A stretch of DNA of 58,920 bases from a bacterium (GTDB lineage: Bacteria > Patescibacteriota > Minisyncoccia > UBA6257 > 2-01-FULL-56-20), in contig DAIDAM010000014.1 in NCBI GenBank assembly GCA_027310625.1, forward strand, positions 1 through 58,920, written 5' to 3'. Below are positions 10,881-42,967 of the stretch, one piece after another; position 1 is the first letter of the stretch; every line of letters starts with the position of its first letter. The notes under the pieces are model-generated. The model did no database searches and had not been told where the DNA came from. It was given only the letters and a program-made list of their open reading frames with translations. A program made the position numbers and the translations under genes.

Positions 10881-10918
10881 TACTATGATTATCCAACAAT
10901 TGTGATTATTTCATAGTA
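10881..10918. repeat. 38-bp palindrome family P38 (TACTAT..CAATTGTGAT..ATAGTA), degenerate copy
   Basis: Sequence is tactatgattatccaacaattgtgattatttcatagta. It ends 29 nt upstream of the HAD hydrolase start. Confidence 0.7.
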
Positions 10919-10946: not shown

Positions 10947-11654
10947 ATGAGAACTAAGATGAAAACTAAAAAAAGAAAAGTAGCCGTTTTTGACATTGAC
11001 GGCACGGTTTTCCGCTCCAGTTTGCTGATAGAGCTGACGGAAATTTTGATTATCGAAGGAATTTTTCCGAAAAGCGCCCGCAAAGAGTATTTGGAGGAAT
11101 ATGTACGATGGTTGGACAGGAAAGGGGGGTATAAAGAGTACATTGAGGCAGTCATCAAAGCGTTTGATAAACACATAAAGGGTGTCCGCGAGAAAGATTT
11201 GGAGTCCGCCGTTAAAAAAGTTATTCCCGCGCACAAGGACCGGCTTTACCGCTACACGCGCGGCCTCATTCGCGAACTCAAAAATAAAAATTATTATCTT
11301 CTTGCAATTTCGCATTCGCCGATGTACGTTGTCGGTCGGTTTGCAAAGCAATTGGGATTTGACAAGGTCTATGGTCGTCTTCTTGAAACGAACAACAAAA
11401 AGAAGCTTACAGGTGTCCAGCTTTATCCGGAATTGATTTTCGACAAAGCCAAAATTCTCAAGCGCGCGGTTGAAAAAGAAAATCTCACGTTGAAAGGGTC
11501 GGTGGGAGTGGGGGATACGGAATCCGACATCCCGTTTTTGAAAATGGTGGACAAACCGATTTGTTTCAATCCCAACTTTGTACTTTATCGCGCGGCGCGC
11601 AGAAACGGCTGGCGTATAATTGTAGAAAGAAAAAACGTTATTTATAAAATCTAG
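10947..11654 (+). CDS. HAD-superfamily (subfamily IB-like) hydrolase
   Basis: VAVFDIDGTVF (the DxDGT nucleophile motif) and a later GVGDTESDIPFL motif. Confidence 0.75.
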   Translation: MRTKMKTKKRKVAVFDIDGTVFRSSLLIELTEILIIEGIFPKSARKEYLEEYVRWLDRKGGYKEYIEAVIKAFDKHIKGVREKDLESAVKKVIPAHKDRLYRYTRGLIRELKNKNYYLLAISHSPMYVVGRFAKQLGFDKVYGRLLETNNKKKLTGVQLYPELIFDKAKILKRAVEKENLTLKGSVGVGDTESDIPFLKMVDKPICFNPNFVLYRAARRNGWRIIVERKNVIYKI

Positions 11655-13258: not shown

Positions 13259-13290
13259 CTATTCTAATATTCTTAAGAATATTAGAATAG
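13259..13290. repeat. P32 palindrome, perfect copy
   Basis: Sequence is ctattctaatattcttaagaatattagaatag. It ends 31 nt upstream of the ArsR-like gene. Confidence 0.85.
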
Positions 13291-13320: not shown

Positions 13321-13590
13321 ATGAAGCAAACTAGAAAACTCGAGAGAATAGTAAGGGGTTTTTCTAACCATCGGCGAATCGAAATCCTGGATTTATTAGA
13401 GAGAAAGCCAGAACTTTCGTTATTTGAAATTTCAAGAGAACTGAATGTGAATTTCAAAACAGCATCCGAGCATGCCCGCAGGCTAGCAATTGCCGGCTTG
13501 GTGTTGAAGCGATATGAGGGTAATTCTGTTCGCCATTGCTTGTCGCCGCTTGGCAAGTCCATTCTCAAATTCTTAAGAATATTGGAATAG
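13321..13590 (+). CDS. ArsR/SmtB-like winged-helix transcriptional regulator
   Basis: RRIEILDLLERKPELSLFEISRELNVNFKTASEHARRLAIAGLV is a typical HTH. The last 10 codons and the stop are provided by a P32 copy. Confidence 0.7.
   Translation: MKQTRKLERIVRGFSNHRRIEILDLLERKPELSLFEISRELNVNFKTASEHARRLAIAGLVLKRYEGNSVRHCLSPLGKSILKFLRILE
13559..13590. repeat. P32 palindrome, degenerate copy forming the 3' end of the ArsR-like ORF
   Basis: Sequence is ccattctcaaattcttaagaatattggaatag. Confidence 0.7.
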
Positions 13591-18578: not shown

Positions 18579-18610
18579 CTATTCTAATATTCTTAAGAAT
18601 ATTAGAATAG
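18579..18610. repeat. P32 palindrome, perfect copy
   Basis: Sequence is ctattctaatattcttaagaatattagaatag. Confidence 0.85.
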
Positions 18611-18667: not shown

Positions 18668-18994
18668 TTGTACTCCATGGCTTTTATAAAAAAAGAAAAA
18701 GAGCTTTACTGGACCAGCCACAGCAAGTACAAAATGCGCTTTTACGGTTTATCGGAAAATCGTTTGAAGCGCGTAATCAATCATCCCGAAAGAATCGAGG
18801 AGGGAATTGCGCCGGAAACGGTGGCAATGATGCAGCCGGCCGGCAGTAAAAAACATCCGTACGAAATTTGGATTATGATTCAGGACGAGAAAAAACGAAG
18901 GAAAATAATCAGCGCCTGGCGCTATCCAGGGCGCACCAAGCCCGGTCAGCCGCTTCCGGAAGAAATTTTGAAAGAAATCAGAAGCGCGGTTTGA
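18668..18994 (+). CDS. hypothetical small protein
   Basis: A 108-aa ORF (..YWTSHSKYKMRFYGLSENRLKRVINHPERIEEG..). I cannot recognise the family with confidence. Confidence 0.45.
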   Translation: MYSMAFIKKEKELYWTSHSKYKMRFYGLSENRLKRVINHPERIEEGIAPETVAMMQPAGSKKHPYEIWIMIQDEKKRRKIISAWRYPGRTKPGQPLPEEILKEIRSAV

Positions 18995-19046: not shown

Positions 19047-19084
19047 TACTATTATTTAGTCACAATTGTGATATAATTATAGTA
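19047..19084. repeat. P38 palindrome
   Basis: Sequence is tactattatttagtcacaattgtgatataattatagta. Confidence 0.8.
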
Positions 19085-19116: not shown

Positions 19117-19150
19117 CAAAGAGCGCTATGACTAGTCATAGCGCTCTTTG
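19117..19150. terminator. Perfect 34-bp palindrome (P22 family CGCTATGACTAGTCATAGCG); likely bidirectional terminator
   Basis: Sequence is caaagagcgctatgactagtcatagcgctctttg, lying between convergent genes. Confidence 0.6.
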
Positions 19151-19240: not shown

Positions 19241-19840
19241 TCAGGTGAAGTACAGCCGCGCGGCGGCGAGTGCCCACACGAGCGCAATTCCTCCTCCGAC
19301 CTGCATTTTCCCCTGCGTTTCCAAAGTCCAGCGCTTGCTGAACTTTGCGGCGCCGAGGAAAAAGAATGGCGTTAGCAGGAGAGACATCATGACGATGTCG
19401 AACTTGGACACCGGCGGATTGGTCAGGCCAAAGTAGACCACGCCGAACGTCCAAATCACAGCAACCGCGAATAGCCCGTGAATCCATCCCGCGACGGTTG
19501 TGGTTCCGTCATGCGTGTGCGCCTCCGGCGTTACCTTGCCGCCCTCCTGATACATATAGCCAAGGGCGAGCGACGCGGCCAGCGCAATCGCGAGGATCAC
19601 GAAACTCCATGCCGACGACCAGTCCATGCGGTACTTGCCCATGAAGTAGGCGACCATAGGCGAAATCACAAACACATCTGCCCACATCCCGCCGTGCTCC
19701 ATGAAGGACCAGCCGTTCGTCACGCCGCGCGACTGCATCTGCGCCTGCGTGAGGTAGCCGTCAAGCCATGCCGCAATACCCTGCACGACGACCAGCGCTA
19801 CCCCCACGAGGAGGATTGCGAGGAAGATTTTCCAGTCCAC
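19241..19840 (-). CDS. GC-rich integral membrane protein, unknown function
   Basis: GTG start preceded by AAAGGAG. The product has several hydrophobic, Trp-rich helices. Third codon positions are strongly G/C-biased, unlike the neighbouring genes. Confidence 0.6.
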   Translation of the reverse strand: MDWKIFLAILLVGVALVVVQGIAAWLDGYLTQAQMQSRGVTNGWSFMEHGGMWADVFVISPMVAYFMGKYRMDWSSAWSFVILAIALAASLALGYMYQEGGKVTPEAHTHDGTTTVAGWIHGLFAVAVIWTFGVVYFGLTNPPVSKFDIVMMSLLLTPFFFLGAAKFSKRWTLETQGKMQVGGGIALVWALAAARLYFT

Positions 19841-19986: not shown

Positions 19987-20024
19987 TACTATAATATAAT
20001 CACAATTGTGATATAATTATAGTA
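19987..20024. repeat. P38 palindrome between divergent genes
   Basis: Sequence is tactataatataatcacaattgtgatataattatagta. The right arm contains TGATATAAT. Confidence 0.8.
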
Positions 20025-20104
20025 ATTAGTTACTAGTTATCAGTTATCAGGGATTAGCGACTAATAATAAGATAACGGAAACTAAAAGCCGGTGACTATA
20101 AAGA

Positions 20105-20677: not shown

Positions 20678-20727
20678 TCATCGGTCTGCAGGATTATTTT
20701 TTATCTAGTGAAATGTGAAAATTTCTG

Positions 20728-20756
20728 CCGCTATGACTAGTCATAGCGGTGTTTTG
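20728..20756 (+). terminator. P22-family hairpin plus T-run
   Basis: Sequence ccgctatgactagtcatagcgg is followed by tgttttg. Confidence 0.6.
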
Positions 20757-22163: not shown

Positions 22164-22748
22164 GTGAATAGGATAACGACTCTGGTAGTTGGGCCACTGG
22201 TCGAGCAGAAGGTGAAGGAGCTGGCCGGGCTTTTTCTGAAGGAGGTTCTGAAGAGCGGCGGGAAGCTCGTGTGGCATCCGCGGAAGGTTCTGAAGTACTA
22301 CGACCTCCACCCGTGGAAGAAGATCTGGGAAATGAAAATCGGAGAGAACGAGAAAGGAGAGATCGTTTTATCCGGCGGTCCGATTTACCTCACTGTTGTG
22401 GAGGCAGAAAGACCCGACGCGGTCGTGGATCGTCAAGGTGTTCTCCTTGTGCAGTTCGTCGATATGCGGAAGTCGATCAGTATCGAGAGTGATAGCAACG
22501 GGAATCCCGTGTTGAACATTTCCTTACACGTGAAGCCGTCCCACATGCGGGGCATCGTGCACCAGCTGATCGCCGATCACGTGGTCAACGGGAGGACTGA
22601 AGAGTACATTATGGCCGGCAGGAGAGCGGTTGAGAACGAAAAACGACGAAAGGCCGACGAGGACGAAAAACGGCGAAGGGCCGAGCGGAGGGCGGAGAGA
22701 ACAGAACGGAAACGTGAAGAAGCGAGGCATCGCCTCTACCCCCAGTAG
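22164..22748 (+). CDS. GC-rich hypothetical protein with Lys/Arg/Glu-rich C-terminal tail
   Basis: GTG start. The last ~45 aa are AVENEKRRKADEDEKRRRAERRAERTERKREEARHR. A terminator follows the gene. Confidence 0.5.
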   Translation: MNRITTLVVGPLVEQKVKELAGLFLKEVLKSGGKLVWHPRKVLKYYDLHPWKKIWEMKIGENEKGEIVLSGGPIYLTVVEAERPDAVVDRQGVLLVQFVDMRKSISIESDSNGNPVLNISLHVKPSHMRGIVHQLIADHVVNGRTEEYIMAGRRAVENEKRRKADEDEKRRRAERRAERTERKREEARHRLYPQ

Positions 22749-22765: not shown

Positions 22766-22798
22766 AAGGAACCGCAGTTGCGGTTCCTTTCCATTTTT
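22766..22798 (+). terminator. Intrinsic terminator
   Basis: Stem aaggaaccgc, loop agtt, stem gcggttcctt, then tccattttt. Confidence 0.6.
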
Positions 22799-22842: not shown

Positions 22843-22880
22843 TACTATGAAATAATCACAATTGTGATATAGTGATAGTA
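22843..22880. repeat. P38 palindrome
   Basis: Sequence is tactatgaaataatcacaattgtgatatagtgatagta. It ends 41 nt upstream of ychF. Confidence 0.8.
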
Positions 22881-24057: not shown

Positions 24058-24095
24058 TACTATTATTAAATCACAATTGTGATATAATCATAGTA
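24058..24095. repeat. P38 palindrome
   Basis: Sequence is tactattattaaatcacaattgtgatataatcatagta. TGATATAAT lies at 24080-24088, and the next ATG is at 24131. Confidence 0.8.
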
Positions 24096-33729: not shown

Positions 33730-34576
33730 AAAAAGCAAACCAAAATACGTAATCGGTATTGATAAGGTGGGTCGTGCCGCCCCAAAAGGGCGGGCCTCTC
33801 GCCTCGCTGGAGCTAAGGCGAAGCGGACGCCCCGTAAATATGTAATTGGTATCGACGAGGTGGGGCGGGGCGCTCTCGCGGGGCCGGTGGTCGTGGCGGC
33901 GGTTTGTTTTCCGACAAAATTGAGAGTGCGGAACGCGGAACTCGGCGCGTTGAAGGATTCCAAAAAGCTTTCGCCGAAGGCGCGCGAACGCTGGCTCGAA
34001 CATTTTAAAACTGTTCCCGAAATATTATCGCGAACAGCCAGAGTTTATCCGCGAAAAATAGAAAAAATAAACATCTCGCAGGCGGCAAACCGCGCCGCAA
34101 CTTCGGCGCTGGAACGCGTCATCGAATCCGTTTTCGCCAGTAGGACAAAAAAACATTCTAACATTCTGCAGAATGTTAGAATGTTCAAATCTATGCCGGG
34201 AACAAACTATTCTAATATTCTTAAGAATATTAGAATAGATATTTTTCTTGATGGGGGATTGTATTTAACGAATAAAATTAATCCTTCGATAAACTTCCTT
34301 CGACACGGCTCAAGACAAGCAGGGCGAATGATTGTCAAAACAATCATTCGGGGCGACGAGAAAATCGCCGCCATCAAAATCGCTTCCATCATCGCCAAAG
34401 TGCAGAGGGACAAGTATATGAAAAAACTTTCCCGAAAATATCCGCGCTATGACTTTGAGATGCACAAGGGATACGGGACAAAAATGCACCGCAGGGCCAT
34501 CAGAAAACACGGGCCTAGCGAAGTTCATAGATTGACGTTCTTGAAGAAATCCCATAGAATTGCTAATAGCAAATAG
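33725..34576 (+). CDS. rnhB: ribonuclease HII
   Basis: IGIDEVGRGALAGPVV (the catalytic DE motif) and a C-terminal HKGYGTKMHRRAI. The start is uncertain (33692 or 33725). The N-terminal KYVIGID(K/E)VGR is duplicated and the gene contains two P32-type inserts. Confidence 0.85.
   Translation: MRKSKPKYVIGIDKVGRAAPKGRASRLAGAKAKRTPRKYVIGIDEVGRGALAGPVVVAAVCFPTKLRVRNAELGALKDSKKLSPKARERWLEHFKTVPEILSRTARVYPRKIEKINISQAANRAATSALERVIESVFASRTKKHSNILQNVRMFKSMPGTNYSNILKNIRIDIFLDGGLYLTNKINPSINFLRHGSRQAGRMIVKTIIRGDEKIAAIKIASIIAKVQRDKYMKKLSRKYPRYDFEMHKGYGTKMHRRAIRKHGPSEVHRLTFLKKSHRIANSK
34154..34183. repeat. P32 variant (CTGCAG centre) in frame in rnhB
   Basis: Sequence is cattctaacattctgcagaatgttagaatg, read as HSNILQNVRM. 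Confidence 0.75.
34207..34238. repeat. P32 perfect copy in frame in rnhB
   Basis: Sequence is ctattctaatattcttaagaatattagaatag, read as YSNILKNIRID. Confidence 0.85.
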
Positions 34577-41296: not shown

Positions 41297-41336
41297 AAAA
41301 CACCGCTATGACAAGTCATAGCGGTGTTTTGGTTTT
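41297..41336 (+). terminator. P22-family hairpin terminator of rplL
   Basis: Sequence aaaacaccgctatgacaagtcatagcggtgtttt is followed by ggtttt. Confidence 0.65.
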
Positions 41337-41425: not shown

Positions 41426-41463
41426 TACTATCATCATATCACAATTGTGATTATATGATAGTA
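41426..41463. repeat. P38 palindrome (between convergent genes)
   Basis: Sequence is tactatcatcatatcacaattgtgattatatgatagta. Confidence 0.8.
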
Positions 41464-42855: not shown

Positions 42856-42929
42856 TAATCATAATCCTGATGTTGCCTCGGGACTAAAGCAGAACAGAAA
42901 TAATAAAATAACATAAGAAATCCTTGATC

Positions 42930-42967
42930 ACTATGATTATATCACAATTGTGATATAGTAATAGTAA
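42930..42967. repeat. P38 palindrome
   Basis: Sequence is cactatgattatatcacaattgtgatatagtaatagta. It ends 32 nt upstream of the next ATG. Confidence 0.8.

Follow-up and report, generated by a model that had tools for sequence, protein, structure and literature searches.

The DNA studied here, referred to as the window, is the whole 58,920-nt contig DAIDAM010000014.1 (contig C14 of GenBank assembly GCA_027310625.1), and belongs to a bacterial genome of 766 kb in 21 contigs that is an estimated ~97% complete (G000, the source genome). That size at that completeness indicates an ultra-small bacterium of the candidate phyla radiation (CPR) or Patescibacteria type; to our knowledge, almost nothing is known about gene regulation in this group, which has very few transcription factors. 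At positions 24058–24095, between ychF and a gene for a CYTH protein, the window contains a 38-bp palindrome, TACTAT…ATAGTA, with arms that resemble outward-facing extended −10 promoter boxes. The palindrome recurs elsewhere in the window and throughout the genome, and two of its copies bracket the gene for a small PaaX-like protein, which we call mini-PaaX. We propose, with a probability of roughly 0.7, that the palindrome is the cognate DNA site of mini-PaaX (G000:C21:6800–7306) and that the remaining copies are dispersed solo versions of this site.

An earlier sequence-only reading of this DNA had counted seven copies in the window. All seven are present (10881, 19047, 19987, 22843, 24058, 41426 and 42929), and the last begins with CACTAT at 42929 rather than at 42930. 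Its account of their surroundings also holds: five copies lie upstream of an ATG (HAD, PEBP, ychF, CYTH and alpha/beta hydrolase), copy 19987 separates divergent genes, and codon-usage gene calls place copies 19047 and 41426 between convergent genes. The −10-like arm sequences likewise occur where they had been described, with TGTGATATAAT at 24078–24088, 19067–19077 and 20007–20017, and TGTGATATAGT at 22863–22873 and 42949–42959. The copies and the signals nearest to them are as follows.

10881–10918, no strand: copy in the nth/HAD spacer, 28 nt before the HAD ATG; the most degenerate copy of the window (3 mismatches, left core CCAACAA)
19047–19084, no strand: copy between the convergent 108-aa gene 18668–18994 (+) and gene 19241–19840 (−)
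19987–20024, no strand: copy between divergent genes; right arm TGTGATATAAT, 80 nt before the PEBP ATG
22766–22789, + strand: intrinsic terminator of gene 22164–22748, a GC-rich hairpin with a T-run; copy 22843 lies 3′ of it
22843–22880, no strand: copy 40 nt before the ychF ATG; right arm TGTGATATAGT
24058–24095, no strand: focal copy, TACTAT-TATTAA-ATCACAATTGTGAT-ATAATC-ATAGTA, 30 nt past the ychF stop and 35 nt before the CYTH ATG
24078–24088, + strand: extended −10 match (TRTGnTATAAT), TGTGATATAAT, in the right arm of the focal copy, toward the CYTH gene; a consensus match only
41297–41336, + strand: terminator hairpin of rplL, its own terminator, apart from copy 41426
41426–41463, no strand: copy between the convergent genes rplL (+) and a staphylococcal-nuclease-like gene (−)
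42929–42966, no strand: copy reading CACTAT…ATAGTA, after tRNA-Val and 32 nt before the alpha/beta-hydrolase ATG; both arms −10-like

A discrete family of intergenic palindromes

Matches to the 14-bp core with at most two mismatches number six in the window, against 0.13 expected from shuffled sequence. When the whole source genome was scored at 26 fixed positions, 19 copies were recovered with 0–4 mismatches and the next-best site had 7; because of this gap, we regard the copies as a discrete family. From the centre outwards, each half-site reads TTGTGAT-WWWWT-N-ATAGTA, with a purine after it. The core, both outer hexamers and spacer base 5 (a T in 38/38 arms) are near-invariant, and the remainder of the spacer is variable. 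A T precedes 18 of the 19 copies and an A or G follows them, and these conserved flanking bases extend the unit to about 40 bp (T-TACTAT…ATAGTA-A). The two arms of a copy vary independently, with complementarity no better than chance (p = 0.45); independent arms, together with variation that is restricted to the spacer, are what would be expected of half-sites read on duplex DNA. Near-identical pairs of copies were no commoner than among half-sites re-paired at random (p = 0.66 for pairs with at most two differences and 0.04 for at most three), and a division of the 19 copies into sub-families was therefore rejected. In a scan of the window against Rfam the palindrome matched no family, and the Rfam and tRNA scans together returned two tRNAs only.

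The palindrome was absent from 40 sampled relatives, four genomes of the same genus included. An exact-pattern scan of one genome per prokaryotic species identified one other carrier, a metagenome-assembled genome (CAZDFQ01) labelled Candidatus Saccharibacteria (G041, which is also G071), and the exact-pattern scan of metagenome contigs gave no matches. G041 belongs to the same family and a different genus, with YchF 64–70% and SecA 71% identical, against 74–84% within the genus. Its whole genome holds 18 copies, nearly perfect palindromes with the symmetric core variants ATCACAATTGTGAT, ATCGCATATGCGAT, ATTACAATTGTAAT and ATAACAATTGTTAT. In both genomes, which were called as 84–85% coding, every copy is intergenic (19/19 and 18/18). 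The copies are also clustered: a single 33-kb stretch of the window contains 7, and so does the syntenic stretch of G041. A relaxed pattern run over 125 genomes of the family gave matches in five only: G000 (18), G071 (17), G062 (4), G118 (3) and G069 (1).

Several repeats were seen next to individual copies. A ~95-nt inverted-repeat element directly adjoins two solo copies (G000:C5:13548–13642 and G000:C12:17276–17367), its only two occurrences in the genome; it consists of TTACTATCAYTACAATCGG, ~52 nt and CCRATTGARTGATAGTAA, and its arms resemble the 38-bp half-site, as though an insert had divided a related palindrome. In G041, a (TACTAT)x5 run (C8; L013 ~1945–1965) abuts one copy, which indicates that the outer hexamer can expand as a tandem repeat, and two copies lie 25 bp apart at C1:79339–79439. 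Within the window, imperfect 7-nt repeats (TTACTAG TTATCAG TTATCAG) directly follow copy 19987 at 20025–20060, in the PEBP leader. The HAD gene begins (10947–10970) with ATGAGAACTAAG ATGAAAACTAAA, in which 12 nt of its own start are imperfectly duplicated in tandem, and a third, degenerate copy of this motif forms the end of nth, across the spacer that holds copy 10881.

Mini-PaaX, the candidate partner of the palindrome

Comparison of the neighbours of all copies in G000 and G041 revealed an orthologous small gene that is bracketed by two copies in both genomes (G000:C21:6800–7306, 168 aa; G041:C8:23087–23668, 193 aa). Behind an N-terminal helical region, the encoded protein matches Pfam PaaX_M (PF20803), the Cas2-like central domain of PaaX, with E = 2.5e-8 in G000 and 5e-11 in G041. 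Its AlphaFold model (25 homologues; mean pLDDT 87) consists of a winged helix and then a ferredoxin-like beta-alpha-beta-beta-alpha-beta domain. The top Foldseek matches in the PDB were E. coli PaaX (8a39) and a PaaX-like protein (3l09), with both domains covered at a probability of 0.99, followed by ArsR/MarR/PadR winged-helix repressors and Cas2 proteins; a profile search with mini-PaaX gave weak matches to Cas2 and MarR-type proteins. The Asp at the Cas2 catalytic position (FDIP) is invariant among the 25 homologues. No match to the PaaX_C effector domain was obtained, and nothing follows the Cas2-like domain in the protein (168 aa; homologues 168–224 aa), so that sensing of phenylacetyl-CoA is not expected. 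A Pfam scan of genes neighbouring the copies found no paa genes, and a literature search found no paper linking PaaX-like proteins to Patescibacteria.

In the source genome the mini-PaaX module sits between a giant surface-protein gene and SpoU. The mini-PaaX gene is inverted between its palindromes, relative to the neighbouring giant protein gene, when G000 is compared with G041. The same slot in G004, a genome of the same genus, holds a different, 139-aa HTH-like (helix-turn-helix) gene (C16, L114 957–1444) and then a perfect 30-bp palindrome, TTGTCCACTACTACATGTAGTAGTGGACAA.

The sequence-only reading had suggested in-silico co-occurrence with a particular regulator gene as a check, and this check points to mini-PaaX. 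A search of the 125 family genomes with the G000 protein found homologues in 49 of them. The top three matches outside G000 lie in G071 (65% identity), G069 (52%) and G062 (47%), all of them palindrome-positive genomes in which a copy adjoins the gene; by simple arithmetic, the chance probability of such a ranking is ~1e-5. The orthologue in G062 is flanked on either side by that genome's form of the palindrome. In G069, where the contig ends inside the orthologue, a copy is found 18 nt upstream of the ATG. Among the palindrome-negative genomes of the same genus, G002–G004 have a distant paralogue only and G001 has no homologue. The association of gene and palindrome also holds more widely: 27 of 30 homologue loci pass a strict screen for a 34–48-bp palindrome adjoining the gene, about half of them with palindromes on both sides, and a looser motif match adds G069. 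These palindromes are genome-specific and mostly centred on ACGATCGT. Similarity between proteins correlates with similarity between half-sites (Mantel r = 0.40, p = 0.0005), a correlation to which linked descent contributes. A second G000 paralogue (C10:117600–117938) has a private palindrome pair without solo copies. In other genomes, sister families comprise 2–6 copies, which marks the families of G000 (19) and G041 (18) as expanded.

The geometry of the palindrome resembles that of a PaaX operator. E. coli PaaX recognises TGATTC(N27)GAATCA and, by hindering RNA polymerase, acts as a repressor of its own promoter, and its Cas2-like domain has been described as a dimerisation motif (PMC9493321). 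The present site, TACTAT-N26-ATAGTA in 19 copies, is similarly made of two 6-bp inverted repeats at nearly the N27 spacing of PaaX. By analogy with the E. coli protein, a mini-PaaX dimer formed through the Cas2-like domains would place one winged helix on each outer hexamer (TACTAT and ATAGTA), with the conserved centre under the dimer axis. The hexamer centres are 32 bp apart, about three helical turns, which puts them on one face of the DNA. A dimer bound in this manner would cover the outward-facing extended −10 box (TGTGATATAAT) of the arms. The mini-PaaX gene itself would most likely have a self-repressed promoter, and the other 17 copies would be solo promoter–operator units lodged in intergenic DNA, spread by a copy mechanism and with their contact positions later kept by selection or concerted evolution. 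A solo copy would then probably serve as a repressible promoter at some loci, such as those of ychF, CYTH, PEBP and the alpha/beta hydrolase, and at convergent pairs (rplL/nuclease and copy 19047) the site would be bound with no gene to drive. The earlier suggestion that the palindrome is an operator for a dimeric HTH regulator is, as far as sequence and predicted structure can indicate, well supported: the candidate regulator is bracketed by copies, its orthologues occur in palindrome-carrying genomes and the site has PaaX-operator geometry.

Site conservation, promoter evidence and competing explanations

G041:C1 and contigs of four genomes from the same genus are collinear with the window. 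Copies of the palindrome in G000 and G041 correspond at the following places.

After the ychF stop: 30 nt in G000, 28–31 nt in G041; orthologous copy
Before the HAD ATG: 28 nt in G000, 35 nt in G041; orthologous copy
Before a small membrane open reading frame (ORF): 51 nt in G000, 50 nt in G041; orthologous copy
Convergent rplL/nuclease spacer: a copy in G000 and a copy in G041; same gene pair
Both sides of the mini-PaaX gene: copies in G000 and in G041; orthologous

For three of the four solo sites, and for both regions that bracket the mini-PaaX gene, nothing in the spacer is conserved except the element, and the DNA around it cannot be aligned. This is the case for the focal copy 24058, the only part of the ychF–CYTH intergenic DNA that is conserved with G041. 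In the rplL/nuclease spacer, the copies of the two genomes lie at different offsets and do not align.

Each of the two genomes, G000 and G041, has about ten lineage-specific copies. A 26-position match is not repeatable by point mutation, which implies that some copy mechanism spread the copies. No target-site duplication is shared by the flanks of the 19 G000 copies, no clean insertion junction is visible against the relatives, and no gene is interrupted by a copy in G000 or G041; with neither duplication nor junction, we rejected a miniature inverted-repeat transposable element. The nth/HAD spacer measures 85 bp with its copy in G000, is missing from G004 and G002, where nth abuts HAD, and holds a different GC hairpin in G070. 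Copies 19047 and 19987 flank a ~1.1-kb stretch with a unique membrane-protein gene (19241–19840), and the neighbours of this stretch are adjacent in G004, G001 and G002. A composite transposon bounded by these two copies was considered and rejected: the extra DNA relative to G004, G002 and G001 runs 52 and 80 nt past the palindromes, which shows that these are not insertion termini, and there is no duplication. Two CYTH genes unique to G000 lie between the focal copy and recR, and the ychF–recR interval of G041 holds the element only.

The bidirectional promoter proposed in the sequence-only reading finds local support. Twenty of the 38 G000 arms are TGnTATAAT-like (five arms in the window are exactly TGTGATATAAT or TGTGATATAGT), and a purine is located 8–9 nt downstream of the −10-like position in 38/38 arms. 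At the mini-PaaX gene, the gene-facing arm contains TATAAT or TATGAT in 4/4 orthologues and is also −10-like in G000 paralogue 2. In G041 and in this paralogue, the −10 box of the arm lies 7–8 nt before the ATG, implying a leaderless mRNA. At ychF, no promoter-like site other than the arm was found between the terminator at 22766–22789 and the ATG, nor was any −35/−10 pair; given that terminator, termination at this locus needs no palindrome.

Genome-wide, the promoter proposal fails the test that had been set for it. Gene orientation classes were taken from codon-usage-scored gene calls, because longest-ORF calling mis-assigns the neighbours of copies and inflates the convergent class; counts from the latter were not used. 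The neighbours that hinge on the codon-usage calls are ppa (C5:12999–13511), a 53-aa membrane ORF (C10:31721–31882) and a Nudix fragment (C12:17105–17251).

G000 copies: 13 tandem, 5 convergent, 1 divergent
G041 copies: 10 tandem, 6 convergent, 2 divergent

These positions provide the first of several observations that weigh against a mini-PaaX promoter–operator. Convergent genes flank 11 of the 37 copies, against 5.4 expected (p = 0.014), which bears out the earlier remark that the element is not purely a promoter; the divergent class is low (3/37, p = 0.08). Arms were classed as −10-like if they contained ATAAT, ATAGT or ATGAT and then scored by the gene start or gene end that they face. The −10-like class comprised 8 of 15 arms facing a gene start and 12 of 23 facing a gene end (Fisher p = 1), and the idea that arm quality tracks gene direction was rejected. 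Other intergenic TGnTAnnRT motifs in G000, by comparison, favour gene starts (103 vs 48). The distribution relative to gene starts was a check set beforehand, and its outcome, an excess of convergent copies with arms oriented at random, speaks against a promoter function common to all copies. Before the HAD gene, the facing arm in G000 is not −10-like. A promoter role is thus only partly supported; it appears, from the sequences of the arms, to hold at the mini-PaaX gene and plausibly at a few solo copies, 24058 included, and not family-wide.

Further points of this kind concern the protein and its association with the palindrome. The TM-scores to solved PaaX structures are low (0.31–0.35), searches of PDB sequences, whether single-sequence or profile, miss PaaX, which is reached only by Pfam and fold comparison, and the G000 protein is without a ~25-residue segment found in most homologues. 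G118 has three palindrome-type copies but only 40%-identical homologues, which lie beside other palindromes. Co-variation of a gene with its adjacent DNA is partly expected from shared descent alone, and co-occurrence was compared for the mini-PaaX gene only, not systematically for other genes. Finally, co-variation between the arms of individual copies is seen in G041 (p = 0.0005) and in ACGATCGT-centred families elsewhere; it suggests a hairpin or an arm-copying step and is unexplained by simple binding to duplex DNA.

Of the alternatives, the one that survives best, although we consider it tentative, is a REP-like (repetitive extragenic palindrome) selfish repeat. The palindromes would be non-autonomous, and the Cas2-fold protein encoded between two of them would copy them, via a hairpin or by cut-and-copy, in the role of a nuclease or transposase-like enzyme. 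As a possible corollary, held just as tentatively, the solo copies would have no host function, and their likeness to promoters would be incidental or would soften the harm of insertion. The layout matches that of REP/RAYT systems, which combine extragenic palindromes with a partner gene flanked by its own repeat type (PMC3337134). This explanation would also accommodate the patchy distribution (5/125 genomes), the excess between convergent genes (p = 0.014), the presence of lineage-specific copies in G000 and of others in G041, the 85-bp nth/HAD spacer that holds a copy in G000 and does not exist in G004 and G002, the sub-families and arm-to-arm co-variation of G041 (p = 0.0005) and other genomes, the 18–19 copies compared with 2–6 in sister families, and the invariant Asp (FDIP) at the Cas2 catalytic position of 25 homologues. 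However, neither a target-site duplication nor a defined insertion junction was found, six copies are held at orthologous sites across genera, and no copy interrupts a gene in either genome. In G000, moreover, the arms are not complementary beyond chance (p = 0.45), and decay restricted to the spacer suits a binding site over a hairpin. The Cas2-like domain in PaaX has itself been described as a dimerisation motif and not a nuclease (PMC9493321).

A RAYT partner for the palindromes was sought and rejected. The only PF01797 (Y1_Tnp) match in G000, at C10:105154–105855, lies 73 kb from the nearest copy and has no G041 homologue, and no palindrome of at least 24 bp (at most one mismatched pair) was found beside it. 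This gene encodes a 233-aa IS200/RAYT-like Y1 transposase and is situated in an islet of small toxin–antitoxin-like ORFs.

A more specific proposal, which we think doubtful, is that mini-PaaX is also a sequence-specific Cas2-fold nuclease or strand-transfer enzyme that cuts the palindrome centre (CAATTG; CGATCG in most relatives), copies the palindrome to new intergenic sites and rearranges the DNA between copies. Such an activity would explain the invariant Asp, the restriction-site-like centre, the co-variation of arms and the inversion of the mini-PaaX gene between G000 and G041. It would likewise explain the lineage-specific genes at palindrome edges, namely the membrane gene 19241–19840 and the two CYTH genes beside 24058.

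The palindromes could also make up a plain regulon, in which fixed bidirectional promoter–operators evolved in place before co-regulated genes and were never mobile. The TGnTATAAT-like sequence of 20/38 arms, the five window copies located 28–80 nt before an ATG, the arm that is the sole promoter-like site after the terminator upstream of ychF, and the conservation in G041 of the sites before HAD, the small membrane ORF and the regulator gene are all in keeping with this idea. We nevertheless judge it improbable, because 11/37 copies are convergent, including two cross-genus sites (ychF/recR in G041 and rplL/nuclease), the quality of an arm bears no relation to the direction of the genes (Fisher p = 1), and a 38-bp match at 26 positions cannot arise independently at ~10 lineage-specific sites. 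The neighbouring genes, too, share no common function: they encode EF-P, a MurA-like protein, an aminoacyl-tRNA synthetase, malic enzyme, pyrophosphatase, a deaminase, SpoU, VIT1, RNase H, an exonuclease, HAD, PEBP, YchF and CYTH proteins.

Dispersed palindromic sites are also bound by Noc, SlmA and MatP, and on this model the palindromes would be chromosome-organising or roadblock sites at which a bound protein insulates transcription units or shapes the nucleoid. Many copies lie close behind stop codons (1–34 nt) or between convergent genes, copies also lie at the edges of lineage-specific genes, and the clusters of 7 in 33 kb of the window and 7 in the syntenic G041 stretch would suit such a role. 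The argument is one of position alone, though; several copies are already separated from the upstream genes by canonical terminators, and sister families elsewhere consist of two bracketing copies only, which argues that a genome-wide structural role is not the basic function. We regard this explanation as very unlikely.

An element acting in RNA, as a transcribed hairpin that forms an intrinsic terminator or an mRNA-stabilising stem–loop, can be dismissed almost entirely: the copies do fold (mean −11 kcal/mol in G000 and −16 in G041) and many are 3′ of genes, but the stem is AT-rich, all 37 copies lack a following T-run, G000 spacers are not complementary, the primary sequence is conserved across genera beyond pairing, and GC-rich terminators with T-runs lie nearby, canonical ones even in the same spacers, so that an intrinsic terminator was rejected.

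Other repeats and one unusual gene were noted in passing. Terminator hairpins at 19117–19150 (−), 20726–20751 (+) and 41297–41336 (+) have in common GCGCTATGAC(T/A)AGTCATAGCGC and then a T-run, and are members of a repeated family rather than independent hairpins. Another perfect palindrome, the 32-bp CTATTCTAATATTCTTAAGAATATTAGAATAG, occurs in the window at 13259–13290, 18579–18610 and 34207–34238, with variants, for example, near 13559. Two palindromes of this type bracket an 89-aa ArsR-like winged-helix ORF (13321–13590, +), possibly another small gene for a DNA-binding protein that lies between copies of its own palindrome, and palindromes similar to CTATTCTAATATTCTTAAGAATATTAGAATAG adjoin the mini-PaaX loci of G041 and G062. 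Elsewhere in the source genome (G000:C20:7468–8256), the Pfam match of a methionine sulfoxide reductase B (SelR) gene is split by an in-frame GIY-YIG nuclease domain.

Comparison with known systems

A 38-bp site in 19 copies, paired with a specific small protein, constitutes a directly testable protein–DNA pair. If mini-PaaX represses the outward −10 boxes, the palindrome would be a compact and portable promoter–operator cassette scattered through a minimal genome. If the protein also cuts, it would represent a new repeat-mobilising system on the Cas2 fold, and under such a nuclease activity the partnership of repeat and gene would be REP/RAYT-like on a fold unrelated to known transposases. 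If it neither represses nor cuts, one third of the conserved sites would be left without a gene start, and the role of a protein bound between convergent genes would be in question. What is added here is a solo family that has expanded, solo sites that are conserved between genera, and a quantitative test of promoter function.

With extended −10 sigma-70 promoters, the palindrome shares a TGTGATATAAT/TGTGATATAGT-like box in 20/38 arms and a purine 8–9 nt downstream. It differs from them in that the arms have no −35 partner and are not oriented toward genes, and the G062 variant of the solo element has no −10 box.

The closest resemblance at the level of the protein is to the PaaX repressors and their operators (E. 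coli W and the Pseudomonas phenylacetate catabolon; 8a39, 3l09). Both have an N-terminal winged helix and PaaX_M, and both sites consist of two 6-bp inverted repeats at a spacing of 26–27 bp. PaaX represses its own promoter (PMC9493321), and here a −10 box is found in the gene-facing arm of the upstream copy. In contrast to PaaX, mini-PaaX is without the PaaX_C domain and has no paa genes nearby, and its gene has the site on both sides. Conservation covers the full 38 bp, centre included, and not only the outer hexamers, and there are 17 additional intergenic copies, one third of them between convergent genes.

In common with REP/REPIN and RAYT systems, the family consists of short palindromes outside genes that number in the tens, every paralogue is paired with a type of its own, and the copies show vertical persistence at fixed sites and an excess at gene 3′ ends (PMC3337134). 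Unlike in those systems, the bracketed gene encodes a winged-helix and Cas2-like protein instead of a Y1 HUH transposase, the palindromes are single and of a perfect type rather than doublets with a spacer, there are 19 copies and not hundreds, and G000 has no hairpin signature. Taken together, the system is best described as PaaX-like in its protein and site geometry, and REP/RAYT-like in its layout and spread.

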